Below, piece by piece: positions 3,860 through 39,223 of a stretch of DNA of 64,000 nucleotides; position 1 is the stretch's first letter, and every line of letters begins with the position of its first letter. Below the pieces are notes generated by a model. That model saw only the letters and a list, made by a program, of their open reading frames with translations, was not told the DNA's origin and ran no database searches. The stretch lies in the sequence record PQ471460.1, one strand, 5' to 3'. Source of the DNA: Escherichia phage vB_EcoM_JE01. The translations under genes and the position numbers were made by a program.

Positions 3860-4845
3860 TGAAAACAGTAATGAAAAGCTATTTTGGTAGTCATCTTTAT
3901 GGAACTTCTACTCCAGAATCTGATGTAGATTTTAAAGAAATCTTTGTTCCTCCTGCTCGCGATATTCTTATCGGAAATGTTAAAGAGCATATGAGTAAAA
4001 ACACTAAAGATGATATTGACCATGAACTATACAGTCTTAAGTATTTCTTTAAATTAGCAGCAGACGGTGAAACTGTAGCATTGGATATGCTTCACACTCC
4101 ACCTGAACTAGTAGTTAAATCTGATTTGCCTGATGTATGGAAGTTTATTCAAGACAATCGTTCACGGTTTTATACGACTAACATGAAATCCTATTTAGGA
4201 TATGTCCGCAAGCAAGCTTCTAAATATGGTGTTAAGGGTTCTCGTTTGGCCGCATTGCGTGATGTATTGAAAGTAGTTAATCAAATCCCCGATCAGTGGG
4301 TTGATTACCGAGAAGATGGAACACAAGGACAACGTCGTACTAAAATTGCAGATATTAAACACCGTCTTCCAGAGAACGAGTTCTGTGAATGGGTATTCCA
4401 TAACCACGAGAAAACAGGTCCTCAAACGTTCTATACTGTTCTTGGACGTAAGTACCAAACCACCTTGTCTTTAATCGAGCTCAAGCAATCTCTGAATAAG
4501 CTCGATGCGGAATATGGTGAACGTGCTCGTAAGGCTGAAGCTAATGAAGGTATTGACTGGAAAGCTCTGAGTCATGCTTATCGCGCAGGGTATCAATTGA
4601 TGGAAATCTACCAAACAGGTGATTTGGCGTTCCCATTGCGCGAAGCCTCTATCATTAAGCTGATTAAAGCCGGTGAATTACCATTTAAAGAAGTTCAAGA
4701 ACTTCTTGAAGATACTGTTGATTTGGTTGAAGTCCTAGCCATCCAGGCAGCTAAGAACGGTATGCCTGATAAGGTAGACATGAAGTTCTGGGACAAGTTC
4801 GTTGAAGAGGTATATCTTGAAAACCACCGAAGTTATTATAAATGA
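3856..4845 (+). CDS. predicted nucleotidyltransferase (Pol-beta superfamily fold)
   Basis: 329 aa; N-terminal GS-x10-DVD (YFGSHLYGTSTPESDVDFKEIF) typical of Pol-beta-type NTases, with a further acidic residue about 50 aa downstream (VALDMLH). Confidence 0.65.
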   Translation: MMKTVMKSYFGSHLYGTSTPESDVDFKEIFVPPARDILIGNVKEHMSKNTKDDIDHELYSLKYFFKLAADGETVALDMLHTPPELVVKSDLPDVWKFIQDNRSRFYTTNMKSYLGYVRKQASKYGVKGSRLAALRDVLKVVNQIPDQWVDYREDGTQGQRRTKIADIKHRLPENEFCEWVFHNHEKTGPQTFYTVLGRKYQTTLSLIELKQSLNKLDAEYGERARKAEANEGIDWKALSHAYRAGYQLMEIYQTGDLAFPLREASIIKLIKAGELPFKEVQELLEDTVDLVEVLAIQAAKNGMPDKVDMKFWDKFVEEVYLENHRSYYK

Positions 4846-4847
4846 TA

Positions 4848-4872
4848 GGGAGCCTTCGGGCTCCCTTTTTTG
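4848..4872 (+). terminator. rho-independent terminator (UUCG hairpin + T-run)
   Basis: gggagcc-ttcg-ggctccc TTTTTTG. Confidence 0.7.
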
Positions 4873-4894
4873 TTTAAAATGACGTCACAAAGTT

Positions 4895-4924
4895 GTTTAC
4901 AAGCATAAAGCTTTATGGTACTAT
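4895..4924 (+). promoter_or_regulatory. T4-type early promoter
   Basis: GTTTAC, 18 nt, TGGTACTAT; followed by conserved leader CAACTATCAACT. Confidence 0.6.
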
Positions 4925-4959
4925 ACAACTATCAACTGATGTGGATTTGGGGGAATAAA

Positions 4960-5109
4960 ATGAAAACTACGTTAATTGAAGTAAAAAAGTTGATTGACAC
5001 AGAAGAGATTTCAGCTTGTTTTGAAAATTTCTTAGAAGATGCAACTGAAGATAACGCAGTTTATCTCGCTCAGAAAATTATAGAAACATATTTGGAGCAG
5101 AATCAATGA
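4960..5109 (+). CDS. hypothetical small protein
   Basis: 49-aa ORF downstream of the promoter. Confidence 0.4.
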   Translation: MKTTLIEVKKLIDTEEISACFENFLEDATEDNAVYLAQKIIETYLEQNQ

Positions 5110-5369
5110 CAGTTTACGTAGATGTTTTAATGAATCATGGATGGAAACTTCGCGGTCATCCAACTAAAAATTGTCATATGTTCACTGATGGAGATATTGA
5201 AGAGCTTCATGAAATGGCAGAAGCAATAGGAATGAAACGCTCTTGGTTTCAAGATAAACGCATTAAACATTATGACTTACACGCGCGCCGCCGCCAAAAA
5301 GCCGTAGAACTTGGAGCTGTAGAAGTATCTCGTCGCGAAGCAGTAAAAATTTGGCGAACATTAAAATAA
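5106..5369 (+). CDS. hypothetical protein
   Basis: 87-aa basic ORF (ATGA overlap); no confident family assignment. Confidence 0.55.
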   Translation: MTVYVDVLMNHGWKLRGHPTKNCHMFTDGDIEELHEMAEAIGMKRSWFQDKRIKHYDLHARRRQKAVELGAVEVSRREAVKIWRTLK

Positions 5370-5372
5370 ATT

Positions 5373-5402
5373 GTTTACAGTAGGGTAGTAGTGTGATACT
5401 AT
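5373..5402 (+). promoter_or_regulatory. T4-type early promoter with stem-loop
   Basis: GTTTAC ... TGATACTAT; inverted repeat tagggta/taccct flanks the -10. Confidence 0.55.
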
Positions 5403-5438
5403 TACCCTATCAAAACAAATGTTAAATTGGAGAATAAA

Positions 5439-6407
5439 ATGAAAACTGTAACTATCAATAAGGGTATCTACTTCGGTAAAGAAATCTCTGGAACTTTTGA
5501 GCTCTTAGGCGAATGGTTCCCAGATAATGCTCCGGTAGATGCACAGGGAGATGGTAAAGTTTTTGTTGAAATTGACGGTAAACGTCGCGGTGTTTGGGTT
5601 TACAAATCAGATATTTCATATGATGGTGTAAAAGTTGAAGAAGTTAAAGAATCATATGAAGATATGAAAACCCGCATTAATAAAAGATTTAATGTTATGG
5701 GAATGATGACGAATGGTATTATTAATGGAAATATTCGTTCATTGATTATCTCTGGCGCAGCAGGTATTGGTAAAACGTATTCTTTAGATAAAGCTTTAAA
5801 TAAAGCAAATGATAATGGATACATTGAATATAAAAGCATTAACGGTAAAATCTCTGGTATTGGTCTTTATGAGCAGCTTTGGAATAATCGTGAAGAGAAT
5901 TCTGTCCTTTTGATTGATGATGTGGATGTTTTCTCTGATATGGACATTCTTAATCTTCTAAAAGCTGCTCTGGACACTGGAGAGACCCGTAAAGTCTGCT
6001 GGAGTACTGCGTCTTCTTACTTAGAAGAAAAAGGCATTGAGCGTGAGTTTGAATTTAAAGGAACGATTGTTTTTATCACAAACGTTGATATTGACCGCGA
6101 ATTAGACCGTGGTACTAAACTTGCTCCACACCTACAAGCATTAGTGTCCCGCTCAGTTTATTTAGATTTGGGTGTTCATACTAATGAAGAAATTATGGTC
6201 AGGGTTGAAGATGTTATTCTTTCAACTGACATGATGCAAAAGCGCGGTCTTTCTGATGAAGAAACTTATAAAGCATTATCATGGATGAAAGTTAATGTTA
6301 ATCGTTTACGCAATGTTTCACTGCGTACTGCTCTTTATCTTGCTGACTTTATTATGACCGACAAAAACGGTTGGGAAGAAATTGCTGAAACGGTATTATT
6401 AAAATGA
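5439..6407 (+). CDS. predicted P-loop NTPase (AAA-like ATPase)
   Basis: 322 aa; Walker A GAAGIGKT and Walker B LLIDDVD; SD GGAG before ATG. Confidence 0.65.
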   Translation: MKTVTINKGIYFGKEISGTFELLGEWFPDNAPVDAQGDGKVFVEIDGKRRGVWVYKSDISYDGVKVEEVKESYEDMKTRINKRFNVMGMMTNGIINGNIRSLIISGAAGIGKTYSLDKALNKANDNGYIEYKSINGKISGIGLYEQLWNNREENSVLLIDDVDVFSDMDILNLLKAALDTGETRKVCWSTASSYLEEKGIEREFEFKGTIVFITNVDIDRELDRGTKLAPHLQALVSRSVYLDLGVHTNEEIMVRVEDVILSTDMMQKRGLSDEETYKALSWMKVNVNRLRNVSLRTALYLADFIMTDKNGWEEIAETVLLK

Positions 6408-7123
6408 AAAAATATTTTACTATCTATAAAACTGAAATATTAAATTTAAAGACAGGTATTAAGAAATACTATTATGGTCGACATATAACTAATAACATCA
6501 ATGATTCGTATGTTGGTAGTGGAAATTATATAGAACGTGTAAAAGTGTCAAATGACCACATATTATCAAAAACGGTTTTAGAAGTTTTTGATAATTATGA
6601 TAAAATGGTACAAGCTGAAATATTATATATCATGGCAGGTAAATTGAAATATGGAAAAAACTGTGTTAACCTGTCATACGGGGGTGAAGGAGGAAAGGTT
6701 GCAGATGAAACTAGGATAAAATGCAAAAAGCATTCTATAAATTTATGGAAAAATCCTAATCATATACAGCATATGAAGAAAAAGATGAAAGAGGTTACAT
6801 CCACGCCGGAAGCTAAATTAAACACTTCAATAAAAACTTCGCAACGATATAAGGACCCAGTTTTTGTTAGAAAAGTTAGTAATATTATTAAAAAGAAACT
6901 AAGCAATCCTGCAGTAAAAGAAAAGCATATTAATGGAATTAAAGCTGCAAAGCGTTCTCATTTAACTATATGGCAGTATGAAGATGAATTATTCGAGCTT
7001 TGGAAAGAAACTAAATATGGATGGAGAAAATTTACAAAGGAAGCTATAAAACACGGATATCCAAATGAACCGTATCGTAGTATGGTATCAACTTTTCAGA
7101 AAAGACATTTAGAAGAATCCTAA
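6404..7123 (+). CDS. putative Seg-like (degenerate GIY-YIG) homing endonuclease
   Basis: 239 aa, lysine-rich and AT-rich; N-terminus FTIYKTEILNLKTGIKKYYYGRH resembles GIY-(10-11)-YIG; C-terminal basic repeats typical of DNA-binding modules. Confidence 0.5.
   Translation: MKKYFTIYKTEILNLKTGIKKYYYGRHITNNINDSYVGSGNYIERVKVSNDHILSKTVLEVFDNYDKMVQAEILYIMAGKLKYGKNCVNLSYGGEGGKVADETRIKCKKHSINLWKNPNHIQHMKKKMKEVTSTPEAKLNTSIKTSQRYKDPVFVRKVSNIIKKKLSNPAVKEKHINGIKAAKRSHLTIWQYEDELFELWKETKYGWRKFTKEAIKHGYPNEPYRSMVSTFQKRHLEES
6404..7123 (+). mobile_element. putative free-standing homing endonuclease gene
   Basis: Same ORF as above; compositionally distinct from neighbours. Confidence 0.4.
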
Positions 7124-7206
7124 GACAAAAAAGGCAGTTCAGAAATAGATTATATGGACTGCCATTAAAAAGATGACTAGAACTAAACTGGTGAATGGAG
7201 GTAGTG

Positions 7207-7509
7207 ATGTTATACTCAAAGGCTCGTGAAATTTACGAAACTAAAATTAAAGAAGCTGTATTTCAGTTCGCAACAACGATGCGATGGACAAATGATTGGG
7301 AGTATTCAAAAAATCATAAGAAGCCCCTGGTGACAAGAAAGGCTCATATGTTAGTGTTAATAGACCGTGAGCAGATTAAAGCCCGAGAAGCCCTCCAGAA
7401 TCATAAAAAGGCTGCCTTTGAATGGTTTATGGATAACACTGCTCCTGAGACTAAGAAAGTGGTAAGTGCTTGGTTCAGTGGAAAAAATTGTGAAAGAAGT
7501 TTCTTTTAG
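7207..7509 (+). CDS. hypothetical protein
   Basis: 100-aa ORF with SD GGAGG upstream. Confidence 0.5.
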   Translation: MLYSKAREIYETKIKEAVFQFATTMRWTNDWEYSKNHKKPLVTRKAHMLVLIDREQIKAREALQNHKKAAFEWFMDNTAPETKKVVSAWFSGKNCERSFF

Positions 7510-7511
7510 TG

Positions 7512-7564
7512 GTTTACAAGACTGTTCCTCTGTGGTACTATACAACTATCAACTACGGAGGAAC
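7512..7564 (+). promoter_or_regulatory. early promoter inside a stem-loop (PeSL-type cassette)
   Basis: GTTTAC, 18 nt, TGGTACTAT; stem gttcctctg/cggaggaac encloses the -10 and forms the SD; near-identical copy at 60741-60793. Confidence 0.6.
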
Positions 7565-7569
7565 AGAAA

Positions 7570-8097
7570 ATGAACGCTAAAGATATTTTCAACTTAGTAA
7601 ATTATAACGATGGTAAATTTAAATCTGAAGCACAAAGCAAGTTCTTTAACGACATCTCAATCGGAGGTGAAATCACTGTTGATGGAGGACAAATTTACAA
7701 ATCACGTTGGAATTGGATCGTTATTATTGATGAGATTGGTATTGTAGAAATTTACAAGAATACGAATAAAAATCGTACATTACACTGGTCTCGTGATACT
7801 AACGAACAGTACAAAAAGGATAAAGCATCTAAAATGTCTCGTGTAACTCAAGAAGATATTGAGTTCATCAAGAAAGATATTTTAATGTATGATAACTTAA
7901 TTGCTGAAGAGCAAGCTGTTATTGATAAATTTGACGAGATTAAAGCTTCTCGTGAAATTCCTGATTTTATGAAAGAATCAGTAAATGAACGATACTCTCT
8001 CATTTCAGAGCGTATTGAAACTTACAAAAAGCAAAGAGCTGAACGCCAAAATACTCTTCGGAAGTTTGAAGAACGGTTAAAGACGGTACTCGCATAA
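7570..8097 (+). CDS. hypothetical protein with coiled-coil C-terminus
   Basis: 175-aa ORF immediately after the cassette. Confidence 0.6.
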   Translation: MNAKDIFNLVNYNDGKFKSEAQSKFFNDISIGGEITVDGGQIYKSRWNWIVIIDEIGIVEIYKNTNKNRTLHWSRDTNEQYKKDKASKMSRVTQEDIEFIKKDILMYDNLIAEEQAVIDKFDEIKASREIPDFMKESVNERYSLISERIETYKKQRAERQNTLRKFEERLKTVLA

Positions 8098-8099
8098 CC

Positions 8100-8123
8100 G
8101 CTTTATACCAAGGATGGTATAAT
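8100..8123 (+). promoter_or_regulatory. candidate middle-type promoter (weak MotA box + TATAAT)
   Basis: GCTTTA, 12 nt, TGGTATAAT. Confidence 0.4.
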
Positions 8124-8152
8124 GGTTCTAAGCCCTTTTAATTGAGATTATT

Positions 8153-8560
8153 ATGAAACGGTTGATAATTAAAAGATTGAATTTATTGATATGTTGTTTA
8201 TGTATAGTAGTTGCATATGGTTATTACGCAATTAATGATTATATGCACTATAAAGATTATGATGTTACTGTAGTTAATACTATTACAGGAACTCAAGGAA
8301 AGGGGTCTAGTTTATCGTTTATTGCCGTATATGAACTCAAAGACGGTTATAGATTTAGTGAATATATTTCCCCAGAGATGTATTCTTCAATAGAAAAAGG
8401 TGATAATATTACTGTAAGTTTACGTCCTTTCGACGTAAAACAGACACTGTTTGATAATATTGTTTGGTTCTTTGGGATGGTATTAGTTCAATCCGTGTGT
8501 GGCGCTTATGTAGTTTGTTCAATCATATTCTGTGTATTTAGTAAAATTGAAATTGAGTGA
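8153..8560 (+). CDS. predicted membrane protein
   Basis: 135 aa with N- and C-terminal hydrophobic helices. Confidence 0.55.
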   Translation: MKRLIIKRLNLLICCLCIVVAYGYYAINDYMHYKDYDVTVVNTITGTQGKGSSLSFIAVYELKDGYRFSEYISPEMYSSIEKGDNITVSLRPFDVKQTLFDNIVWFFGMVLVQSVCGAYVVCSIIFCVFSKIEIE

Positions 8561-8567
8561 GGAAAAT

Positions 8568-9458
8568 ATGTCAGTAGTAATTAATAATGTCAATGCAGTA
8601 ATTAAATCTTTAGTTAATAAAAAAATGATGAATGAATGGACTGTACTTCGTCGTGGAGAGCCAGATAAATTTTTTCATAGATTTAACCCAACTTTGGATT
8701 TGAATGTTATTGATAAAGATGTTCATGCCGAAATTTTAGATAAGTTTAAAGTTGATATTGGATTTGGATTAGAAAAACATTTACAGCGAACAAATGGATC
8801 TGGAATGAGTTTATCTAATCGCATTATGAAAGCCCTTAATAAAATTGGAGCATTGTCTCGTATTAACGCGAGTGAAATCCTTCGTAATTATAATAAAGGA
8901 TATGACCTTTATGGTCGACTAATGCCGAAGTTATCATTTGACCAAATGATAGCAGATTTGTGGGAAAATCAACGACGATTATTAGCATTAGGCGCTCGAT
9001 TAGCTAAAGGTCTAGATAAACAAATGATTTTTAAGACCAATAATACAGAAGACCTTAAATGCTTTAAATTTAGTATTCGCGGAGATGATTATTATATCAG
9101 AGCTCGCTCTACAGATTATGTTAATATGGGGCATCATCTCTGTTTAGCTTTTGAAGTTTTAAAAGAAGCTGGAACATTAGAATATTCATCTGGTGCAAAA
9201 TGCCCTATCGGTTCAAGTTGTATTTTAATTTATCGCCCGAATGAATCCAGTTCAACTACATTGCCTATGAAACCTGCGCCAGTTCGTAGTAACGAAAAAC
9301 ATTCTGAACAAATTGATTATTTTAATAAACAGATTGAAGAGCTGAATATTTCTATTCAACAATATGACGATGAAATTTTCAGACTATCTGGATTGAGTAG
9401 TAAAGCTAAATCTGAGCGTGAAAAGTTAATTAAAATCGTTGATTTACTTAAATCTTAA
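8568..9458 (+). CDS. hypothetical protein, member 1 of a four-gene tandem array
   Basis: 296 aa; SD GAGGAAA; C-terminal K/E-rich heptad-like helix. Confidence 0.6.
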   Translation: MSVVINNVNAVIKSLVNKKMMNEWTVLRRGEPDKFFHRFNPTLDLNVIDKDVHAEILDKFKVDIGFGLEKHLQRTNGSGMSLSNRIMKALNKIGALSRINASEILRNYNKGYDLYGRLMPKLSFDQMIADLWENQRRLLALGARLAKGLDKQMIFKTNNTEDLKCFKFSIRGDDYYIRARSTDYVNMGHHLCLAFEVLKEAGTLEYSSGAKCPIGSSCILIYRPNESSSTTLPMKPAPVRSNEKHSEQIDYFNKQIEELNISIQQYDDEIFRLSGLSSKAKSEREKLIKIVDLLKS

Positions 9459-9466
9459 GGAATACC

Positions 9467-10495
9467 ATGAAAACTCGTTCTCAAATTGAAGATATGGTTC
9501 GTAATGCCAGTTATACTCGTGATGTTATGACATTTTTGTGTGAAAATAATTTAGACCCTGATAAAGTTAATCGTGTTATTCATCACTTTAAGTATACGAA
9601 TAGCAGTGAATGGGTGCGTAATTTTAGTAAAGCGGGATATATTACACAAATGACTGCTCGTGAGCAGCTCACCGATTTCTGTAAAACTATTGATTATAAA
9701 AATCCTTTATTTGTTCAAGGCGTTGGTCAAAGTAAGGTCGATTTATCATCTGGATTTTTCAATCCAAATCATTATCGTATTGAATGGAGATTTATTGCTC
9801 TGTTCCGTAGACAATTAAAGCAAATTTTATCAACTGCGAGTCGATTAAAAGGTTCTGATATTAACTTAAAGAACTTGAAATTTGATGGTTATACTCTTCA
9901 GATGGAAGTAAGACCATTAAAAGAAAATAACAGAACTGCACGAATTAGCTTTAAACCTAATACAAAAAATTCTCTTTCAATTTGCGAATGCCTTAAATCA
10001 CAGTTGACAGAAGCATTTAAGTATATGGATGTTGTTGCCGCTGTTCAGTCTAAGATTTTACCTCGTTTTGAGCGAAATTGGGAACATACAACAACGTATG
10101 AACTTGATATGATCGTTTCATTTAAATACGATTTTTTGAGAAAGGACGAAGTCACGCAAGAGAAAAAGCAGGAAGTGCAAGATAACTTAAATTTAAATTT
10201 ATCCAATTACTCATCAAACGATCCTAAATTTTGGATGTATAGCTCAAGCAATATAGATGCATGTAAACTTAATAAAGTGAGTTTTCTTCCTACTGAAAAT
10301 TCAAATTTTAAACCTGTAGAAAAATGGCACGCTGACGCGATTGAGAAGTCTCTTAAGGCAGTAGATGATGAACTCGTTAAAGCGACCAATGAAGTGCTAG
10401 AAGCTGAAAAGGTGTTAGAACAAGCTCAGTCAAGGGTTCAAAATCTGACAAAGCAACGTTCTAAACTGAACAATGCACTAAATGCACTGAACTAG
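9467..10495 (+). CDS. hypothetical protein, array member 2
   Basis: 342 aa; starts MKTR as member 4 does; C-terminal coiled-coil-like segment. Confidence 0.65.
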   Translation: MKTRSQIEDMVRNASYTRDVMTFLCENNLDPDKVNRVIHHFKYTNSSEWVRNFSKAGYITQMTAREQLTDFCKTIDYKNPLFVQGVGQSKVDLSSGFFNPNHYRIEWRFIALFRRQLKQILSTASRLKGSDINLKNLKFDGYTLQMEVRPLKENNRTARISFKPNTKNSLSICECLKSQLTEAFKYMDVVAAVQSKILPRFERNWEHTTTYELDMIVSFKYDFLRKDEVTQEKKQEVQDNLNLNLSNYSSNDPKFWMYSSSNIDACKLNKVSFLPTENSNFKPVEKWHADAIEKSLKAVDDELVKATNEVLEAEKVLEQAQSRVQNLTKQRSKLNNALNALN

Positions 10496-10524
10496 TTTAC
10501 TTTGCCACAAGGATGTGGTATAAT
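10495..10524 (+). promoter_or_regulatory. T4-type early promoter
   Basis: GTTTAC, 18 nt, TGGTATAAT; module ccacaaggatgtggtataat repeated at 55750. Confidence 0.6.
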
Positions 10525-10552
10525 GTTCTTACTTTCTACTGAGGAGATTAAT

Positions 10553-11554
10553 ATGACTCGTAACGAATATATCAAATCATTCAATAGTGTTATTGATGAT
10601 AAAGCTATACCGATGTTTGGTCAAAATAGCGTTATTTCTATTATCAATCAATGGCTCAATAGTGTTGATGCAAGTATTGTTTCTTCTGCTAAATTTATTC
10701 ATGAAATTCGTAAAATTTCTAGCCGTGTAGATAAAGATGTTATCAAGAAAACCTTTAAAGAGTCTCGTCTTCTTTCATATTTGGTTAATCGAGATATTCT
10801 TGGTAATTTTGGGAAAGAAATTAAACGAACCAAAGATGTAGTAGGATATAATTGGTTCGGTGATGTTAATTCTTATCATCTTAATAATAAAGAAGACCCT
10901 GAGAATATTTTTACTCGTCGTTGGATTAGTAATTTCAGACTTTTCAAAAAGCAAATTCTAAAATCAGCTTCTAAATTATGCTATGGCGATTATCGTCAAA
11001 TTCATCCTTGGGCTTCTGATATGATTATCATAAAAGAATATGAGCTTGATAAAAATAAAGCAGCTATTTTTGTGAATTATGAATTTTTTACACCAGACGC
11101 TAACCAAAAGAATATTAATAAATTTTTCTCAATTGCTAGCACTATAACTCGTCAATTAGAAACCGCATTACTTTGTATGGAAACAGTAGAAAATATTCAT
11201 ACTTATCCTTTTAAGAATGTGTGCGGTTGGGAAGGATACAAAATTGTAGTTAGTCTTCGTGAAGTAAAGTGTGCTTATTCACTAACTGATAAAGAAATTT
11301 ACCAACAAAAATGCGAAGAAATTGTGAATACTCCTAAAGAAGAAACTACCCTTGAGGAACTAATGGATAATCTTGATGATTCACCTGAATCGGTAGAAAT
11401 TCGTCCAGAAGTTATTGCATTAGAAAAAGCTTATAAAGAAGCTCTAGAAATTTCTAATAAAGCGCAGAAAGAATATGAGCAGGCTAAAAGGATTTGGGAA
11501 GAATCTGTTAATCGCCTGGATCGTCTTGAACAAGCTTTACAGTTAATTAAGTAA
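10553..11554 (+). CDS. hypothetical protein, array member 3
   Basis: 333 aa; SD GAGGAG; C-terminal coiled-coil-like segment. Confidence 0.65.
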   Translation: MTRNEYIKSFNSVIDDKAIPMFGQNSVISIINQWLNSVDASIVSSAKFIHEIRKISSRVDKDVIKKTFKESRLLSYLVNRDILGNFGKEIKRTKDVVGYNWFGDVNSYHLNNKEDPENIFTRRWISNFRLFKKQILKSASKLCYGDYRQIHPWASDMIIIKEYELDKNKAAIFVNYEFFTPDANQKNINKFFSIASTITRQLETALLCMETVENIHTYPFKNVCGWEGYKIVVSLREVKCAYSLTDKEIYQQKCEEIVNTPKEETTLEELMDNLDDSPESVEIRPEVIALEKAYKEALEISNKAQKEYEQAKRIWEESVNRLDRLEQALQLIK

Positions 11555-11606
11555 TTTAAAGCCAAGGATGGCTCGGAGTATAAATCATTAACTAAGTGAG
11601 AAGAAC

Positions 11607-12536
11607 ATGAAAACTCGTAAACATTATATTGATTATTTTGACAGTCTTATTACTAAACATCGTAATTATCAGATCGGGCACAGAGCAGTAATCAATAATA
11701 TTCTTCGTGATTTCCTTCAATATGTTGGCCAGGAAAATCATATCTGTAAAGATACTCAAAACGCTTATTCTCATTCGTTAGGCAATTTGCTTCAATGGTT
11801 TAAACGTTCTCGTCTGTTATCTTCTACTGTAGCTAGTGATAACATTAAAAACTTTATGAAGCCGAGCTTCATTAAATCTGCGACATCTATAACCGATTTG
11901 GTTGAATTTACTATTGTTAACGATGTTAAAAAGACCCATTTGGCTGATTGGTTATCTACCATTCCTGAAACTAAATTTGCTGATAAATTCGCTTGTCAAT
12001 TCAATGACCAAGTGAATATGCTTTTTAAGCATGCTCGTAAACTATTTACTGCAGGTGATGACCGTACAAATACAGTTCATGTTAAGGACTGGGTTATTGC
12101 TGATGAAGTAACACACAAGCCAGGTGGTTCATCAGTATTAATTAATATCCAGGTTCCTTATTATTACTCACGTAATCTCGGCACCATGACAGCTAGAGAA
12201 ATTAATAAGCACAACAAAACTATTCGTTCGTTGTCTTATAAACTCTGCACGATGGTGGAGATGATGGACGTAGTTGAAATGTATGACGAAACCGAAGATA
12301 ATGGTTCAATGCTGTACAGTTCACGCATTCTAATTAAACTGAAGAACCCTAATACATATAAGCCAGTTGTAAAAGAACCTAAAGTAGAAAAGATTGATAA
12401 CCTGAGTGAAGAACGCGAATATCTTAATACACGTTTAATTGAAGTTGAAAAACAGATTGAAGAGCATACTAAAGTTCTTAAGGCTTTAACCGCCAAAGCA
12501 AATGGTTTACGTAATGCTATTGAGGTATTGAAATGA
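11607..12536 (+). CDS. hypothetical protein, array member 4
   Basis: 309 aa; starts MKTRKHY; C-terminal coiled-coil-like segment. Confidence 0.65.
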   Translation: MKTRKHYIDYFDSLITKHRNYQIGHRAVINNILRDFLQYVGQENHICKDTQNAYSHSLGNLLQWFKRSRLLSSTVASDNIKNFMKPSFIKSATSITDLVEFTIVNDVKKTHLADWLSTIPETKFADKFACQFNDQVNMLFKHARKLFTAGDDRTNTVHVKDWVIADEVTHKPGGSSVLINIQVPYYYSRNLGTMTAREINKHNKTIRSLSYKLCTMVEMMDVVEMYDETEDNGSMLYSSRILIKLKNPNTYKPVVKEPKVEKIDNLSEEREYLNTRLIEVEKQIEEHTKVLKALTAKANGLRNAIEVLK

Positions 12537-14848: not shown

Positions 14849-15322
14849 ATGTTATTGACTGGCAAATTATACAAAGAAGAAAAACAAAAATTTTATAATG
14901 CACAAAACGGTAAATGCTTAATTTGCCAACGAGAACTAAATCCTGATGTTCAAGCTAATCACCTCGACCATGACCATGAATTAAATGGACCAAAAGCAGG
15001 AAAGGTACGTGGATTGCTTTGTAATCTCTGCAATGCTGCAGAAGGTCAAATGAAACACAAATTTAATCGTTCTGGCTTAAAGGGACAAGGTGTTGATTAT
15101 CTTGAATGGTTAGAAAATTTACTTACTTATTTAAAATCCGATTACACCCAAAATAATATTCACCCTAACTTTGTTGGAGATAAATCAAAGGAATTTTCCC
15201 GTTTAGGAAAAGAGGAAATGATGGCTGAGATGCTTCAAAGAGGATTTGAATATAATGAATCTGACACTAAAACACAATTAATAGCTTCATTTAAGAAGCA
15301 GCTTAGAAAGAGTTTAAAATGA
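14849..15322 (+). CDS. 49: endonuclease VII (Holliday junction resolvase)
   Basis: 157 aa; MLLTGKLYKEEKQKFYNAQNGKCLICQREL...HLDHDH...; matches recalled T4 gp49. Confidence 0.9.
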   Translation: MLLTGKLYKEEKQKFYNAQNGKCLICQRELNPDVQANHLDHDHELNGPKAGKVRGLLCNLCNAAEGQMKHKFNRSGLKGQGVDYLEWLENLLTYLKSDYTQNNIHPNFVGDKSKEFSRLGKEEMMAEMLQRGFEYNESDTKTQLIASFKKQLRKSLK

Positions 15323-17136
15323 CAATTGAAAAAGAAATTGAAGGATTGATTCATAAAACTAATAAAGACCTTTTAAACGAGAATGCTAATAAAGATTCTC
15401 GTGTTTTTCCAACTCAACGGGACCTTATGGCTGGTATTGTGTCTAAACACATTGCCAAAAATATGGTCCCGTCTTTTATTATGAAAGCGCATGAAAGCGG
15501 AATTATCCATTTCCATGATATTGATTATTCCCCTGCTCTTCCATTTACTAATTGCTGTTTAGTAGATTTAAAAGGAATGCTTGAAAACGGATTTAAGCTA
15601 GGTAATGCACAGATTGAAACCCCCAAATCAATTGGCGTTGCTACTGCAATTATGGCACAAATTACTGCACAGGTTGCTTCCCATCAATATGGCGGAACGA
15701 CCTTTGCGAATGTAGATAAAGTACTTTCTCCTTATGTTAAACGCACCTATGCAAAACATATTGAGGACGCAGAAAAATGGCAAATCGCAGATGCATTGAA
15801 TTATGCCCAATCTAAAACAGAAAAAGACGTATACGATGCATTCCAAGCTTATGAATATGAAGTAAATACTCTCTTTAGTTCAAACGGACAAACGCCTTTT
15901 GTAACAATTACATTTGGCACGGGAACTGACTGGACTGAACGAATGATTCAGAAAGCAATTCTGAAAAATCGTATTAAAGGTCTTGGTCGTGATGGGATAA
16001 CTCCTATTTTCCCTAAGCTTGTTATGTTCGTTGAAGAAGGTGTTAATCTTTACAAAGACGATCCGAACTATGATATTAAGCAACTTGCCCTAGAGTGTGC
16101 AAGTAAAAGAATGTATCCTGATATTATTTCAGTTAAGAATAATAAAGCTATCACAGGTTCATCTATTCCTGTTTCTCCAATGGGTTGCCGTAGTTTCTTG
16201 GGCGTATGGAAAGATTCGACTGGTAATGAAATTCTTGATGGACGTAATAATCTTGGCGTTGTAACATTGAATCTTCCCCGTATTGCGTTAGATTCTTATA
16301 TTGGAACACAGTTCAATGAACAGAAATTTGCCGAATTGTTCAATGAACGAATGGATTTATGTTTTGAAGCATTGATGTGTAGAATCAGTTCCTTAAAAGG
16401 AGTTAAAGCGACTGTTGCTCCTATTCTTTACCAAGAAGGTGCATTCGGGGTTCGTCTTAAACCTGATGACGATATAATTGAGTTATTTAAAAACGGTAGA
16501 AGTTCAGTGTCTTTGGGATACATTGGTATTCACGAATTGAATATTCTTGTCGGTCGTGATATTGGACAGGAAATTTTAACTAAAATGAATGCTCGTCTTA
16601 AGCAGTGGACTGAAAGAACTGGTTTTGCTTTTAGCTTGTATTCTACACCTGCTGAAAACCTTTGTTATCGCTTCTGTAAACTTGATACTGAGAAATATGG
16701 AAGTGTAAAGGATGTTACCGATAAAGGCTGGTACACTAACAGTTTCCACGTTTCGGTAGAAGAAAATATTACTCCATTTGAAAAGATTTCTCGCGAAGCC
16801 CCATATCATTTCATTGCGACAGGTGGTCACATTTCTTATGTTGAACTTCCTGATATGAAAAATAACCTAAAAGGTCTTGAGGCTGTATGGGATTATGCTG
16901 CACAACATTTAGATTATTTTGGTGTTAACATGCCAGTAGATAAATGTTTTACATGCGGAAGTACCCATGAAATGACTCCTACTGAAAACGGATTTGTTTG
17001 TTCTATTTGTGGAGAAACTGATCCTAAAAAGATGAACACAATAAGAAGAACTTGTGGTTATTTGGGAAATCCGAATGAACGCGGATTTAATCTCGGCAAA
17101 AATAAAGAAATCATGCATAGGGTTAAACACCAATGA
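15319..17136 (+). CDS. nrdD: anaerobic ribonucleoside-triphosphate reductase
   Basis: 605-aa continuous ORF; glycyl-radical C-terminus (RTCGYLG) and Cys-rich motif CFTCGS...CSICG; no intron. Confidence 0.95.
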   Translation: MTIEKEIEGLIHKTNKDLLNENANKDSRVFPTQRDLMAGIVSKHIAKNMVPSFIMKAHESGIIHFHDIDYSPALPFTNCCLVDLKGMLENGFKLGNAQIETPKSIGVATAIMAQITAQVASHQYGGTTFANVDKVLSPYVKRTYAKHIEDAEKWQIADALNYAQSKTEKDVYDAFQAYEYEVNTLFSSNGQTPFVTITFGTGTDWTERMIQKAILKNRIKGLGRDGITPIFPKLVMFVEEGVNLYKDDPNYDIKQLALECASKRMYPDIISVKNNKAITGSSIPVSPMGCRSFLGVWKDSTGNEILDGRNNLGVVTLNLPRIALDSYIGTQFNEQKFAELFNERMDLCFEALMCRISSLKGVKATVAPILYQEGAFGVRLKPDDDIIELFKNGRSSVSLGYIGIHELNILVGRDIGQEILTKMNARLKQWTERTGFAFSLYSTPAENLCYRFCKLDTEKYGSVKDVTDKGWYTNSFHVSVEENITPFEKISREAPYHFIATGGHISYVELPDMKNNLKGLEAVWDYAAQHLDYFGVNMPVDKCFTCGSTHEMTPTENGFVCSICGETDPKKMNTIRRTCGYLGNPNERGFNLGKNKEIMHRVKHQ

Positions 17137-18570: not shown

Positions 18571-18638
18571 CATTCTGTATATTACCATTCTAACTATCAT
18601 TCGCTTCTTATCATTCCCTAAAATAATTTTCACAAAGT

Positions 18639-18669
18639 TGTTTACAAGAAGTTCAAACTGTGGTATTAT
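18639..18669 (+). promoter_or_regulatory. T4-type early promoter
   Basis: GTTTAC, about 19 nt, TGGTATTAT. Confidence 0.55.
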
Positions 18670-18867
18670 TAACATATGAATTGCCTTTGAGGATTTGATA
18701 TGGTTGATAAAGAGATTAAAAGGATCAGTATTATCGTGTTAACGGACATATTGTTATTGTTACAGCAGTAGATGATCTAGATGTTCATTATACTGTACTT
18801 AAATGGAACAAACAGATGATTTGTGACCGTGCTGTATTTAGTTCAGTTGCTAAGGAAATTAAACTCC

Positions 18868-19168: not shown

Positions 19169-19369
19169 ATGAATCCTGAATCTAAATTATCGCAACGAAT
19201 TGCCGAAGCTCGTCGTCAGTTCTTTGAAAATATGATAGCCCAGGGTATTGATGACGAAGTTTTTCTAAACTGGTTTTGGAATCACAAATATTCAAGCTGT
19301 TCAGGGGCAATATTAATATCAGCCGCAATGATGTACGAAGGCTGGAAGGGTGCCAAACAGTTTAGCTAA
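19169..19369 (+). CDS. hypothetical small protein
   Basis: 66-aa ORF; SD GAGGAAA. Confidence 0.45.
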   Translation: MNPESKLSQRIAEARRQFFENMIAQGIDDEVFLNWFWNHKYSSCSGAILISAAMMYEGWKGAKQFS

Positions 19370-19386
19370 GGGCTTCGGCCCTTTTT
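19370..19386 (+). terminator. rho-independent terminator (UUCG hairpin + T-run)
   Basis: gggc-ttcg-gccc TTTTTGG. Confidence 0.65.
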
Positions 19387-21804: not shown

Positions 21805-23007
21805 ATGAAAGTATGTATTTTTATGGCTCGAGGTCTTGAAGGTTGCGGTGTAACTAAATTTTCTCTTGAGCAGCGTGATTGGTTTATTAAAAATGGTCAT
21901 GAAGTAACTTTGGTTTATGCTAAAGATAAATCATTTACTCGTAATTGCGCGCATGATTATAAATCATTTTCAATTCCGGTTTTATTGGCAAAAGAATACG
22001 ATAAAACGCTTAAGCTGGTAAATGATTGTGATATTCTAGTTATCAATTCAGTTCCTGCTACTTCAGTCGAAGAAGACACAATTAATAACTATAAAAAAAT
22101 TATTGATAACATTAAACCTTCGGTTCGTGTTGTAGTTTATCAGCATGACCATTCTTCTCTTTCTTTGCGTCGAAATTTGGGATTAGAAGAAACTGTTCGT
22201 CGAGCTGATGTTATTTTTAGCCATTCTGATAATGGTGACTTTAATAAAGTTTTGATGAAAGAATGGTATCCGGAAACTGTTTCTCTGTTTGATGATATTG
22301 AAGAAGCACCGACCGTATATAACTTTCAGCCTCCTATGGATATTGCGAAGGTTCGATCAACCTACTGGAAAGATGTTTCTGAAATTAACATGAATATCAA
22401 TCGTTGGATTGGTCGTACTACTACATGGAAAGGTTTTTATCAGATGTTTGATTTTCACGAAAAACATCTTAAACCTGCAGGACTAAGTACTATTATGGAA
22501 GGTCTGGAACGTTCTCCAGCGTTCATTCCTATTAAAGAAAAAGGAATTCCATACGAGTATTATCGTCTTCATCAAGTAGACCAAATTAAAATTGCTCCTA
22601 ATTTGCCGACACAAATTCTCGACCGTTATGTAAATAGCGAAATGCTTGAACGCATGAGTAAATCCGGATTTGGTTATCAGCTGAGTAAATTAGATAAAAA
22701 ATATCTACAACGTTCTTTAGAATATACTCATCTCGAGCTTGGTGCATGTGGAACAATTCCGGTATTTTGGAAATCTACGGGCGAAAATTTAAAATTCCGT
22801 GTTGATAACACTCCATTAATTTCTCATGATAGCGGTATCGTTTGGTTTGATGAAAATGACATGGAATCAACATTTGAACGTATTAAAGAACTGTCATCTG
22901 ACCGAGCTCTTTATGACCGTGAACGTGAAAAATCTTATGAATTTTTGTATCAGCATCAAGATTCAAGCTTCTGCTTTAAAGAACAGTTTGACATTATTAC
23001 AAAATAA
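21805..23007 (+). CDS. a-gt: DNA alpha-glucosyltransferase
   Basis: 400 aa; MKVCIFMARGLEGCGVTKFSLEQRDWFIKNGHEV... matches recalled T4 alpha-gt. Confidence 0.9.
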   Translation: MKVCIFMARGLEGCGVTKFSLEQRDWFIKNGHEVTLVYAKDKSFTRNCAHDYKSFSIPVLLAKEYDKTLKLVNDCDILVINSVPATSVEEDTINNYKKIIDNIKPSVRVVVYQHDHSSLSLRRNLGLEETVRRADVIFSHSDNGDFNKVLMKEWYPETVSLFDDIEEAPTVYNFQPPMDIAKVRSTYWKDVSEINMNINRWIGRTTTWKGFYQMFDFHEKHLKPAGLSTIMEGLERSPAFIPIKEKGIPYEYYRLHQVDQIKIAPNLPTQILDRYVNSEMLERMSKSGFGYQLSKLDKKYLQRSLEYTHLELGACGTIPVFWKSTGENLKFRVDNTPLISHDSGIVWFDENDMESTFERIKELSSDRALYDREREKSYEFLYQHQDSSFCFKEQFDIITK

Positions 23008-23008
23008 A

Positions 23009-23020
23009 GGGCTTCGGCCC
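23009..23020 (+). terminator. UUCG-tetraloop hairpin
   Basis: gggc-ttcg-gccc followed by TTTAGCTTTA. Confidence 0.5.
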
Positions 23021-23023
23021 TTT

Positions 23024-23048
23024 AGCTTTATACGGAGTTTGATATAAT
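23024..23048 (+). promoter_or_regulatory. candidate middle promoter (MotA-like box + TATAAT)
   Basis: AGCTTTA, 12 nt, TATAAT; same hairpin/box module as 53855-53895. Confidence 0.5.
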
Positions 23049-24650: not shown

Positions 24651-26335
24651 AGAATTTTAAACTAAACCGAGTTAGGTATCAAAATATAATGTCAGTAGGT
24701 GGAAATCCTATTGACATTCAACTAGATAAGGTTCAAAAAACTCTTATTACTGGACGAAATGGCGGTGGTAAGTCTACTATGTTAGAAGCCATCACATTTG
24801 GGCTTTTTGGCAAGCCATTTCGTGATGTAAAGAAAGGTCAATTAATAAACAGCACAAATAAGAAAGAACTTTTAGTTGAACTGTGGATGGAATATGATGA
24901 GAAAAAGTACTATATCAAAAGAGGGCAAAAACCAAACGTTTTCGAAATCACCGTTAACGGTACACGTCTTAATGAATCTGCCAGCAGTAAAGATTTCCAA
25001 GCAGAATTTGAACAGCTTATCGGAATGTCATACGCCAGTTTCAAACAGATCGTCGTACTCGGCACGGCTGGATATACCCCTTTCATGGGCCTATCCACTC
25101 CTGCAAGAAGAAAACTCGTCGAAGACCTTCTCGAAGTAGGAACATTAGCTGAAATGGATAAGCTTAATAAAGCACTAATACGTGAATTAAATTCACAAAA
25201 CCAAGTGCTTGATGTTAAAAAAGATAGTATTATCCAACAAATTAAAATATATAATGATAACGTTGAACGCCAGAAAAAATTAACTGGTGATAACCTTACT
25301 CGTTTGCAGAATATGTATGATGATTTGGCAAAAGAAGCTAGAACGCTAAAATCGGAAATAGAAGAAGCTAATGAAAGATTAGTTAATATTGTTTTGGATG
25401 AAGACCCGACTGATGCATTTAATAAAATCGGTCAAGAAGCATTTTTAATTAAATCAAAAATTGACTCGTATAATAAAGTCATTAATATGTATCACGAAGG
25501 TGGATTATGTCCAACCTGTTTGTCACAATTAAGTTCCGGTGATAAAGTTGTTTCTAAAATTAAAGATAAAGTTTCTGAATGCACGCATTCGTTTGAACAG
25601 CTTTCAACACATCGTGATAATTTAAAAGTTCTTGTCGATGAATACCGAGATAATATTAAAACCCAACAGTCATTGGCAAATGATATTCGCAATAAAAAGC
25701 AATCTCTAATCACGACGGTAGATAAAGCTAAAAAAGTTAAAGCGGCTATAGAAAAAGCATCATCTGAGTTTATTGACCATGCTGATGAAATAGCACTGCT
25801 TCAAGAAGAACTTGATAAAATTGTTAAGACAAAAACTAATTTAGTAATGGAAAAATACCACAGAGGAATTTTGACTGACATGCTCAAAGATTCTGGTATT
25901 AAAGGTGCTATTATTAAAAAGTACATTCCATTATTTAATAAGCAGATTAACCATTATCTTAAAATAATGGAAGCGGATTATGTGTTTACATTAGATGAAG
26001 AATTTAATGAGACAATTAAATCCCGTGGTCGTGAAGATTTTAGTTATGCTTCATTTAGTCAAGGTGAAAAAGCACGAATTGATATTGCTCTTTTATTTAC
26101 TTGGCGTGATATTGCTGAAAAAGTTTCAGGTGTTAAAATAAGCTGTTTATTTCTTGATGAAGTATATGACGGTGCATTTGATGCTGAAGGTATTAAAAAT
26201 GTAGCTAAAATTTTAGATGGTTTGAAGGATACCAACTTCTTCATAATTTCGCATAAAGACCATGACCCACAAGAATATGGTCAGCATATTCAGATGGAAA
26301 AAGTTGGTAGATTTAGTTTAGCTAAGATTAGCTAG
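24647..26335 (+). CDS. 46: recombination endonuclease subunit gp46 (Rad50/SbcC-like ATPase)
   Basis: 562 aa; Walker A GRNGGGKST, central coiled coil with CPTC zinc hook, Walker B LFLDEV; GTG start. Confidence 0.95.
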   Translation: MKNFKLNRVRYQNIMSVGGNPIDIQLDKVQKTLITGRNGGGKSTMLEAITFGLFGKPFRDVKKGQLINSTNKKELLVELWMEYDEKKYYIKRGQKPNVFEITVNGTRLNESASSKDFQAEFEQLIGMSYASFKQIVVLGTAGYTPFMGLSTPARRKLVEDLLEVGTLAEMDKLNKALIRELNSQNQVLDVKKDSIIQQIKIYNDNVERQKKLTGDNLTRLQNMYDDLAKEARTLKSEIEEANERLVNIVLDEDPTDAFNKIGQEAFLIKSKIDSYNKVINMYHEGGLCPTCLSQLSSGDKVVSKIKDKVSECTHSFEQLSTHRDNLKVLVDEYRDNIKTQQSLANDIRNKKQSLITTVDKAKKVKAAIEKASSEFIDHADEIALLQEELDKIVKTKTNLVMEKYHRGILTDMLKDSGIKGAIIKKYIPLFNKQINHYLKIMEADYVFTLDEEFNETIKSRGREDFSYASFSQGEKARIDIALLFTWRDIAEKVSGVKISCLFLDEVYDGAFDAEGIKNVAKILDGLKDTNFFIISHKDHDPQEYGQHIQMEKVGRFSLAKIS

Positions 26336-27044
26336 GTTTATATTTACAGTTATCATTATGCCATCTTGATAAATTTCCGAAAGTGGTAACTTTACCACAA
26401 TGGACGCAAGTACCAGTCTTTTCAGTTTTCTTGCGTCCATTTGGATTTTTCTTGCAGAAATTTCTATGCGCTGCGATAACGCATTTCTTGCCTATCATTC
26501 CACAGAATTCGCAGGATGTTTCTTCAAGAACGATTGCTTTAAGCCCGTTTGAGATATTATTTCTGTGTTCTTTAGACATTGGTGGTCTAACTTTAGGATT
26601 AGGGTGATTTGGACAGTTATCAAAATGCCAACGATTCATATTCCCGCTTAATCCAGACTTACCGCAATGAGGACAAGTTAGTCTTGCTTTATTAGCTACT
26701 GCATCAGACATTTTCTTTCGTGTCTCCTGGGAGAATTCTTTGTTCTTTTCTATTTCCCAGAGTTTACGACGAATCCAACCGAAAGTTTTATTGTTGCGTT
26801 TAGCGTATTTCGTGGAAACTGTCATCATGTTAGCAGCATAGACTAATTTTGGTTCAGAAGGATAAATTTTTACTAAAAGTTGATGAGCTACATAGTGCTC
26901 TTCTGGCGTTAAATCTACTAAGTTTGAAGCATCATCACTACCGTTTAAACAGCGTGGTATAATGTGATGAGATTCAGTATAGCAATCAAGTTTTCGAGAT
27001 TTAGCATTAGAGATTAACTTTTCATAAATTAGTTTATAATTCAT
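26328..27044 (-). CDS. HNH homing endonuclease (mob-type)
   Basis: 238 aa on minus strand; ...ESHHIIPRCLNGSDDASNLVDLTPEEHYVAHQ... HNH core plus three C-terminal repeats of C-x-H/F-CGK...RWH-x-DNC. Confidence 0.8.
   Translation of the reverse strand: MNYKLIYEKLISNAKSRKLDCYTESHHIIPRCLNGSDDASNLVDLTPEEHYVAHQLLVKIYPSEPKLVYAANMMTVSTKYAKRNNKTFGWIRRKLWEIEKNKEFSQETRKKMSDAVANKARLTCPHCGKSGLSGNMNRWHFDNCPNHPNPKVRPPMSKEHRNNISNGLKAIVLEETSCEFCGMIGKKCVIAAHRNFCKKNPNGRKKTEKTGTCVHCGKVTTFGNLSRWHNDNCKYKPS
26328..27044 (-). mobile_element. free-standing homing endonuclease gene between genes 46 and rpbA
   Basis: Lone minus-strand gene in a + strand operon; HNH family. Confidence 0.6.
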
Positions 27045-27741: not shown

Positions 27742-28428
27742 ATGAAACTGTCTAAAGATACTACTGCTCTGCTTAAAAATTTCGCTACTATTAACTCCGG
27801 TATTATGCTTAAATCTGGTCAATTTATTATGACTCGCGCAGTTAATGGTACAACTTATGCAGAAGCAAATATTTCTGACACTATTGATTTTGATGTAGCA
27901 ATTTACGATTTGAACGGTTTTCTCGGTATTCTGTCTCTAGTTAATGATGATGCAGAAATTTCCCAGTCAGAAGATGGAAATATTAAAATTGCTGATGCTC
28001 GTTCAACAATTTTTTGGCCAGCAGCCGATCCAAGTACAGTAGTTGCTCCTAATAAACCAATTCCATTCCCGGTAGCATCTGTTGTTACTGAAATTAAAGC
28101 TGAAGACCTTCAACAGCTATTGCGTGTATCTCGCGGTCTGCAGATTGATACAATTGCTATCACAGTAAAAGAAGGTAAAATCGTAATTAACGGTTTTAAT
28201 AAAGTAGAAGATTCTGCTTTGACCCGTGTTAAATATTCTTTGACTCTTGGTGATTATGATGGTGAAAATACATTTAATTTCATTATCAATATGGCAAATA
28301 TGAAAATGCAACCAGGAAATTATAAACTTCTGCTCTGGGCAAAAGGTAAACAAGGTGCTGCTAAATTTGAAGGTGAACACGCGAATTATGTAGTAGCTCT
28401 TGAAGCTGATTCTACCCACGACTTTTAA
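27742..28428 (+). CDS. 45: sliding clamp gp45
   Basis: 228 aa; MKLSKDTTALLKNFATINSGIMLKSGQFIMTRAVNGTTYAEANISDTIDFDVAIYDLNGFLGILSLVNDDAE... matches recalled T4 gp45. Confidence 0.95.
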   Translation: MKLSKDTTALLKNFATINSGIMLKSGQFIMTRAVNGTTYAEANISDTIDFDVAIYDLNGFLGILSLVNDDAEISQSEDGNIKIADARSTIFWPAADPSTVVAPNKPIPFPVASVVTEIKAEDLQQLLRVSRGLQIDTIAITVKEGKIVINGFNKVEDSALTRVKYSLTLGDYDGENTFNFIINMANMKMQPGNYKLLLWAKGKQGAAKFEGEHANYVVALEADSTHDF

Positions 28429-28432
28429 TAAA

Positions 28433-28444
28433 GGGCTTCGGCCC
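28433..28444 (+). terminator. UUCG-tetraloop hairpin
   Basis: gggc-ttcg-gccc TTTAT. Confidence 0.5.
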
Positions 28445-28479
28445 TTTATAATTTACACTAAAACTTGAATGAGGAAATT

Positions 28480-30374: not shown

Positions 30375-30378
30375 GCAA

Positions 30379-30392
30379 GGGGCTTCGGCCCC
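30379..30392 (+). terminator. UUCG-tetraloop hairpin
   Basis: gggg-cttcgg-cccc. Confidence 0.5.
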
Positions 30393-30415
30393 TTATTTGG
30401 AGTATAATATATCAA

Positions 30416-33297: not shown

Positions 33298-33330
33298 CAA
33301 CTATCAACTGATGCGGATTTGGAGAATGAA

Positions 33331-39221: not shown

Positions 39222-39223
39222 TA

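Follow-up and report, generated by a model that had tools for sequence, protein, structure and literature searches.

Throughout the 64,000-nucleotide (nt) stretch of Escherichia phage vB_EcoM_JE01 that we analysed (sequence record PQ471460.1; hereafter the window), intergenic modules of similar sequence recur, and the copy at 7512-7572 raises the question of what these modules are, how they act, and whether they promote the shuffling of the small genes beside them. An initial annotation of the window had described them as a family of cassettes, each combining a promoter, a stem-loop and a Shine-Dalgarno (SD) sequence. Our analysis, which covered the sequence architecture of the modules, their orthology with sites in phage T4, the conservation of their hairpins at the RNA level and the mosaic joints inside them, shows that the repeats are T4 early promoter/leader cassettes, already known and published as promoter early stem-loops (PeSLs) for the same phage group. 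They are very probably early promoters for the host sigma-70 polymerase, each followed by a short leader and an SD sequence, about half of them with a hairpin that would form on read-through RNA, and they may serve as patches of homology as well, as in the PeSL model.

All-against-all self-comparison of the window found that the repeats are real and reach well beyond the core promoter hexamers. They form families of 59-72 nt centred on GTTTAC...TGGTAYTAT, and the two copies that had been called almost the same (7508-7574 and 60737-60803) share 91% identity over 67 nt. The 23-mer GTGGTACTATACAACTATCAACT occurs in five copies with at most one mismatch, at 4915, 7532, 33287, 60255 and 63898, all on the + strand, where shuffling gives an expectation of 0 copies; the reported recurrence at five sites therefore stands, but the name of leader given to it does not fit well, as the 23-mer consists mainly of the TGn motif, the -10 hexamer and the first few transcribed bases. 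A second module, the 20-mer CCACAAGGATGTGGTATAAT, is present in two exact copies at 10505 and 55750, precisely as described.

A pattern scan returned 22 GTTTAC-N18-TAnnnT sites on the + strand against 3 loose matches on the - strand, and a weight matrix built from intergenic sites recovered 21 sites on the + strand at a cut-off of at least 15 bits, with no site on the - strand of the window at that cut-off. Promoter-like matches inside genes (14114, 19078, 23933) were dropped, having no UP region, no downstream start and scores below the matrix threshold. The 21 cassettes share a fixed order of parts: an A/T-rich UP region (consensus tttT.A.aaA.T in the weight matrix, 5' of GTTTAC), the -35 hexamer, TGn and TAnnnT, a leader of about 20 nt, a GGAG-type SD sequence and an ATG. 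TAnnnT follows the -35 hexamer by 18 nt in all cassettes, which thus show the early-promoter signature of GTTTAC(A/T), 17 nt and TAnnnT. A GTTTAC -35 and an extended -10 had been ascribed to every copy, which is nearly but not entirely so: the hexamer is GTTTAC in 20/21 and ATATAC in one, and TGn is present in 19/21. The SD core is GGAG or GGAU in 18-19/21, and the -35 lies 55-61 nt from the ATG in most cassettes, 64-74 nt in the remainder. By sequence, each module is a strong sigma-70-like promoter with an SD sequence and a start codon on its 3' side, as in PeSLs.

T4 early promoters were reportedly treated by Liebig & Rüger in 1989 and by Wilkens & Rüger in 1996. The window itself comes from a T4-like phage (Tequatrovirus). 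Aligned to NC_000866, it is collinear with T4 at about 92-96% identity and lies in reverse-complement orientation to the T4 map, spanning tk to motA by way of rIIA/rIIB: window position 136 corresponds to T4 59999 (tk), and the alignment passes the mobD, nrdC, 55, 47-46, 45-44-62-regA-43, imm, 42, uvsX-41 and dmd regions and then 61, 56, soc, mrh, mod, srd, dda, dexA, motB, 39, rIIA and rIIB before it ends in motA at T4 163551. Some two dozen indels or replacements break this collinearity, and the + strand carries nearly all of the window's genes. By megablast, positions 4000-12000 matched 783 phage records, nearly all of them T4-like phages of Escherichia, Shigella or Yersinia at 90-96% identity. 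IMG/VR has a dmd relative at five loci only, and relatives for the comparisons below were instead drawn from the GenBank phage collection. No Rfam family matched anywhere in the window.

PMC1524935, which cites Miller et al. 2003, places GTTTAC of the T4 early consensus at -36 to -31, with A-rich sequence from -40 to -44. T4 early promoters have also been termed 'über' UP/-35/TGn/-10 promoters that share further consensus bases (PMC2988021), and unmodified host polymerase fires them immediately after infection (PMC2988021, PMC3014915). The cassettes have the same GTTTAC, 17-nt spacer, TGn, TAnnnT and A/T-rich UP region, the same extra consensus around +1, the same direction of early transcription and equivalent genes (among them motA, motB, dmd, sp, srd, rIIA.1, nrdC.x and mobD.x). 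There is no essential difference from the T4 early promoters; they are an allelic set in a close relative. The T4 records (NC_000866, AF158101) carry no promoter features, and promoter orthology rests on sequence and literature. When T4 was scanned with the same pattern, 17 of the 20 first-catalogued cassettes proved to lie at T4-equivalent genes, namely mobD.5, mobD.2, nrdC.10, nrdC.8, nrdC.4, the nrdH/55.6 spacer, imm.1, dmd, sp, mrh.2, srd, motB.2, motB, cef, rIIA.1, ndd.4 and motA, and sequence comparison places them in the orientation of the early genes. Unlike these, cassettes 4895, 39224 and 60235 (such labels, like 1354, 7512 or 45611, give the position of the -35 in the window) stand before open reading frames (ORFs) that are missing in T4, and the nrdC.10 cassette is of a different type here than in T4.

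PeSLs, composed of an early promoter, a stem-loop, an SD sequence and an ATG, were named in RB49/phi1 (Arbiol et al. 2010, PMC2839356), and for the T4/PST pair they were given the consensus TTTACW-N17-TAYWAT with the ndd region as worked example (Comeau et al. 2014, PMC4122927). This consensus fits the cassettes of the window, and the published ndd example (Fig. 6A, PMC4122927) is the locus at window 60235-60800. The composite build, the many copies, the position next to small variable ORFs and the presence of some indel joints inside the elements are also the same. The likeness to promoter early stem-loop cassettes of T4-type phages that the initial annotation had proposed was thus confirmed by the relationship to T4 and the match in consensus (PMC1524935, PMC2988021, PMC4122927).

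The stem-loops are less uniform than the promoters. In PST and T4 PeSLs they are drawn just upstream of the promoter, and this arrangement, a terminator followed by a promoter, is found here in four cassettes (1354, 4895, 43509 and 63878), which carry a GC-rich tetraloop hairpin and a T-run 15-30 nt upstream of the -35. In 9-10 others the stem surrounds the -10 box, the subclass described for RB49/phi1. A stem-loop in or next to the promoter is therefore present in 13-14/21 cassettes; the remaining 7-8, in which we found no convincing one, depart from the published PeSLs, as do the stems around the -10 box in lacking a U-run. Elsewhere in the window, hairpins of the GGGCTTCGGCCC type (UUCG tetraloop) with T-runs, which are phage intrinsic terminators, are repeated at the ends of transcription units (19356-19384, 23001-23030, 28425-28454, 30372-30401, 53848-53877, 59123-59151 and 59358-59387).

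In 20 cassettes we tested the pairing between promoter spacer and leader. Each spacer paired better with its own leader than with foreign ones (mean -13.3 versus -8.8 kcal/mol; 0/20000 permutations), so that the hairpins are more than a product of chance, although they are not present in every copy as had been stated: a strong stem, defined as spacer-leader pairing of -13 kcal/mol or better, with the -10 box in its loop, was found in 9/20 (2145, 5373, 7512, 38736, 39224, 50562, 51658, 52253 and 60741), and that of 60235 is marginal. The fold z-scores of the hairpins range from -4.8 to -7.2. The further statement that the 3' arm forms the ribosome-binding site in each copy fails for most of them. 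It holds for 3-4/21: the arm covers the SD sequence in 7512, 60741 and 50562 only, that of 60235 is partly covered, and the other stems end 14-30 nt before the ATG. The three SD-burying helices reach -23.2 to -23.7 kcal/mol (z -5.4 to -7.2) and stop short of the AUG by 2 nt in 7512 and 60741 and by 6 nt in 50562.

As its 5' arm is part of the promoter spacer, such a hairpin would form only on read-through RNA from an upstream promoter; the leader of 7512 taken from its own predicted start is unstructured (-4.4 kcal/mol, z -0.5). In T4, hairpins with an internal promoter silence the long transcripts of e, soc, 49 and I-TevI (PMC3014915). The three SD-burying cassettes resemble these genes in placing the SD sequence in a helix of -23 kcal/mol whose 5' arm lies upstream of the proximal start, and by geometry the short transcript, from its predicted start site, cannot fold this helix. 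The difference is that in T4 the internal promoter is late and early read-through is silenced, whereas here the internal promoter would, judging from its sequence, be early. A second comparison is with RegB, whose target in early SD sequences is GG*AGRAYARAA and which cuts GGAG there unless it is paired (PMC3014915). Checked for the core motif, 18-19/21 of the SD sequences read GGAG or GGAU and are followed by A-rich sequence, as in known targets, and motA, a classical RegB target, is among the cassettes of the window; in 7512 and 60741, in contrast, pairing on read-through RNA would shield the motif.

The initial annotation had also suggested that the cassettes drive modular gene shuffling, a claim that is weakly testable. 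Chained alignments of the window to T4, PST, RB27, G4498 and phiD1 (nearly the full window) and to six more genomes over 38.3-52.7 kb yielded 63 distinct indel breakpoints against relatives, 12 of which fall in cassettes; these occupy 3.35% of the window (p about 1e-6). It is clear that recombination takes place inside cassettes. Three events begin and end at cassettes: at 4968/5427, where two small ORFs and a cassette are missing in five relatives and the joint has 21 nt of shared SD-ATG sequence; at 39202/39532, which comprises a cassette and an 84-aa ORF; and at 50560/51638, where motB.2 and motB.1 are lost in Sso113. In other genomes the imm.1, cef and motA cassettes have an extra ORF between leader and ATG. 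Across genomes one spacer type is found combined with different leaders, and one leader type with different spacers, and the joints lie at the 3' edge of the 21-mer TGGTACTATACAACTATCAAC, which is present in several copies per genome in T4-like IMG/VR contigs and also in the RB69-like phiE142. The cargo ORFs adjoining the cassettes encode small proteins, such as DUF4031, phrog_6888, phrog_2390 and a goF-like family. Some cassette-flanked ORFs do vary among relatives; the largest other inserts are homing endonucleases.

These are two inserts relative to T4, at 6404-7123 (+) and 26328-27044 (-), which encode homing-endonuclease-like proteins (phrog_314 and, with a weak HNH match, phrog_655, respectively); the latter is one of just two minus-strand genes in the window. 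The indels that they make are not bounded by promoter cassettes.

A part for the cassettes as drivers of plasticity above other intergenic sites is not demonstrated. Counted per gene junction, breakpoints are found at 6/17 cassette junctions versus 34/107 others (p=0.49), and because cassette junctions are no more breakpoint-prone than others, a causal role in recombination is not demonstrated either. Selection for self-contained expression modules would, moreover, yield the same picture. These points weigh against that part of our reading, and so the reassortment of parts and the breakpoints inside cassettes stand while the word 'drive' does not.

Whether the stems around the -10 box are maintained, and in which molecule, is answered by three lines of evidence. 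The sense strand folds more stably than the antisense strand (mean -13.2 versus -9.3, Wilcoxon p=0.0013), and each strong stem contains 1-4 G·U pairs on the sense strand, which are C·A mismatches on the opposite strand. In the mobD.2/dmd family, made up of the mobD.2, dmd, 39224-insert and phiD1 nrdC.10 cassettes from the window, T4, PST, RB27, G4498, Sso113 and one IMG/VR contig, a pair is formed in 98.8% of cells, and 7/15 pairs show changes on both sides; 0/500 shuffles do as well, and pairing is 21-65% when the register is slid. Orthologues of seven hairpin cassettes, taken from up to 16 genomes, show 20 distinct substitutions in paired positions, 17 of which preserve the pair (null for transitions 0.58, p=0.010); the three that break it are at the outermost pairs of the 7512 stem. 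A change in the RB27 motB.2 stem, considered as a compensatory pair, was rejected as such, the pairing table giving two independent wobble-preserving changes. From the G·U pairs together with the compensatory and pair-preserving changes, it follows that the -10-box stems are maintained by selection on the sense strand, and RNA is the simplest reading.

The same inverted repeats could instead act in DNA, as cruciforms or single-strand hairpins that attract or are cut by the recombination machinery (e.g. endonuclease VII) or that alter promoter melting, in which case the cassettes would be true recombination hot spots. Breakpoints and mosaic joints do lie inside them, and a DNA-binding protein at the stem-loop was speculated on by the PeSL authors (PMC2839356), but the absence of a breakpoint excess per junction speaks against hot spots and the variation of the arm sequences among cassettes against a common protein site. 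The strand asymmetry, too, speaks against an action in DNA: even though G·T is the least destabilising mismatch in DNA and a hairpin of the non-template strand is possible, the sense G·U pairs turn into C·A on the opposite strand, the antisense fold is the weaker by 5-10 kcal/mol, and all 17 pair-preserving substitutions keep pairing on the sense strand only. We therefore consider an action in DNA to be very unlikely.

We give hardly any credence to the view that the likeness among the cassettes is merely a shared promoter consensus, with the extra identity and the hairpins as passive, functionless products of recent duplication or gene conversion. It would account for an identical core in five cassettes and for two that are 91% identical despite unrelated flanking genes, the T4 early-promoter consensus is known beyond the hexamers (PMC2988021), and the ndd.4 cassette of the window and RB27, with its spacer of the nrdC.8 type, suggests conversion. 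Passive copies would, however, hardly have arms that are wholly different among cassette types while their complementarity is kept, nor compensatory changes at 7/15 pairs and substitutions biased to pair retention, and every relative whose sequence spans the two loci has kept both twin cassettes there. Selection on sense-strand RNA thus remains our preferred reading, and against it must be set that the covariation structure was taken from one aligned sequence, which somewhat favours pairing, that the two outermost base pairs (bp) of the 7512 stem are not kept in T4, PST, RB27, G4498 and phiD1, that without a U-run after them the -10-box hairpins are ruled out as canonical intrinsic terminators, and that start sites, promoter strength and read-through are carried over by analogy from T4.

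From these observations we infer a unit with promoter activity and predicted start sites, with translational masking in some copies, a possible role for RegB and perhaps a causal role in recombination, which would work as follows. The UP element, GTTTAC, the 17-nt spacer and the TGn -10 would recruit host polymerase right after infection, and transcription would start about 7 nt past the -10 box to give a 5' untranslated region of about 20 nt with SD and ATG, that is, an unstructured, well-translated mRNA for the accessory or regulatory gene downstream. The GGAG exposed on this mRNA would be open to cleavage by RegB. About half of the cassettes have a spacer complementary to the first part of the leader, and a stable RNA hairpin with the -10 box in its loop could form; the cassette's own transcript would lack the 5' arm, so that the hairpin would be confined to read-through RNA. 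For nrdC.8, the ndd.4-like gene and motB.2 the SD sequence would then be buried on read-through RNA, and translation would come from the gene's own early promoter only. Stems that end before the SD sequence would most likely be attenuators or barriers that stabilise the 3' end of the upstream message; attenuator activity, like promoter activity, has been measured for an RB49/phi1 PeSL (PMC2839356). Finally, the near-identical stretches of 20-60 nt may act as homology patches at which modules of ORF and cassette are gained, lost and re-assorted.

A bolder proposal, which we put forward only tentatively and think rather less likely than not, is that the -10-box hairpins are a general, selected RNA device that distinguishes transcripts by their start point. 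The read-through structure would mask the SD sequence in nrdC.8, the ndd.4-like gene and motB.2, or alternatively would end the upstream message and protect its 3' end after a RegB cut in the GGAG downstream. Such a transcript-discriminating device was not found stated in the PeSL papers or T4 reviews examined.

The individual cassettes, all on the + strand, are as follows. The mobD.5 homologue is preceded by a cassette at 1329-1414 (-35 at 1354, ATG at 1412) with the terminator AGTCTCCTTCGGGAGACTTTTTT just upstream. The mobD.2 cassette (2145; 2120-2205) has a 15-bp hairpin (2152-2166/2173-2187) around the -10 box, and its SD sequence lies just past the stem. Cassette 4895 (4870-4962), with the 23-mer core and a terminator upstream, would drive two small ORFs at 4960-5369 (phrog_6888 and DUF4031) that are missing in T4, PST, RB27, G4498 and phiD1. 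Next, the nrdC.10 cassette (5373; 5348-5441) has the hairpin GTAGGGTAGTA/TACCCTAT around the -10 box; relatives, T4 included, have other cassette types at this gene. The nrdC.8 cassette (7512; 7487-7572) has its -35 at 7512-7517, TGG TACTAT at 7533-7541, the ATG at 7570 and a 15-bp hairpin (7522-7536/7552-7566) with the SD sequence GGAGGA inside it. The nrdC.4 cassette (10470-10555) contains the CCACAAGGATGTGG spacer module, as does that of rIIA.1 (55715-55797). A cassette at 18615-18702 occupies the position of the T4 nrdH/55.6 intergenic region, and that of imm.1 (33242-33333) has the 23-mer core; the extra ORF between its leader and ATG is found in RB27, G4498 and phiD1.

The dmd cassette (38736; 38711-38797) has a 15-bp hairpin (38743-38757/38764-38778) around the -10 box. 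Cassette 39224 (39199-39287), also with a hairpin around the -10 box, would drive the 84-aa ORF at 39285-39539; this module is present in G4498, SH7, RB6 and one IMG/VR contig and missing in T4 and PST. The cassettes of sp (spackle; 39514-39599) and srd (46921-47007) are without a hairpin. Directly upstream of the mrh.2 cassette (43509; 43484-43567) is the terminator GGACTCCTTCGGGAGTCCTTTTTT. A weaker cassette precedes modB (45586-45669), with its -35 at 45611 and an ATG at 45667 that fits the length of T4 modB. The motB.2 cassette (50562; 50537-50621) has a 17-bp hairpin (50569-50586/50595-50611) around the -10 box with the SD sequence (CUGAGGA) within the 3' arm, and that of motB (51658; 51633-51734) a GGGACC/GGTCCC hairpin in the same position. 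The cassette upstream of cef (52253; 52228-52328) is the one with the variant -35 ATATAC, and has the 13-bp hairpin ATCAGTAGTTGAT/ATCAACTACTGAT; it is followed by a 24-codon ORF (52326-52401) and then by cef (52401-52616), while RB27, phiD1, SH7 and others have a 270-nt ORF in the position between cassette and cef.

Cassette 60235 (60210-60294) combines the 23-mer core, with 1 mismatch, and the CCACAAGGACCGTGG spacer; it would drive an 87-aa ORF (phrog_2390) missing in T4, and a breakpoint lies within its leader. The cassette of the 37-aa ndd.4 homologue (60741; 60716-60801) is a near-twin of 7512, with the same 15-bp hairpin over the SD sequence, and that of motA (63878; 63853-63951) has the 23-mer core and a terminator upstream. 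The spacer TTCCTCTG, typical of the nrdC.8 cassette (7522-7535), is found in the ndd.4 cassette (60751-60764) of the window and RB27, where T4, PST, G4498 and phiD1 have TTCTTCCG; this sharing may reflect gene conversion between cassettes 53 kb apart.

Other differences from T4 in gene content were observed as well. A single 606-aa ORF occupies 53920-55740, where T4 has gene 39, a mobA remnant and gene 60, and at 55340/55405 the window lacks about 1.1 kb of T4 sequence; the window phage thus appears, from its sequence, to lack the split topoisomerase subunit and the translational-bypass segment of gene 60. The nrdD gene (15319-17136; 605 aa) is uninterrupted, whereas T4 and PST have the I-TevII intron and mobC in this region, and the alignment to T4 shows gaps of 1035 nt and 601 nt. 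At 34855-35703 a 282-aa ORF replaces the T4 beta-glucosyltransferase/segA segment. The annotation in PST and RB27 at the same position is beta-glucosyl-HMC-alpha-glucosyltransferase, and the DNA of the window phage is therefore probably glucosylated in the T2/T6 pattern.

For the T4-type phages, the published PeSL idea is limited by these results: parts of the cassettes reassort and some indel joints lie in them, yet there is no excess over ordinary junctions, and homing endonucleases account for other inserts. For annotation, the cassettes mark immediate-early transcription units and show which of the small ORFs would be independently expressed add-ons. The slight step beyond the literature examined is that the -10-box stems are kept as sense-strand RNA and that in three genes the SD sequence would be buried on read-through RNA. 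If the hairpins do form a transcript-discriminating device, some accessory genes would be strictly immediate-early, and a principle documented in T4 for late promoters only would extend to a family of early-promoter cassettes. The burial of the SD sequence offers a cheaply testable hypothesis, namely that T4-type phages may confine some of their genes to the first minutes of infection.

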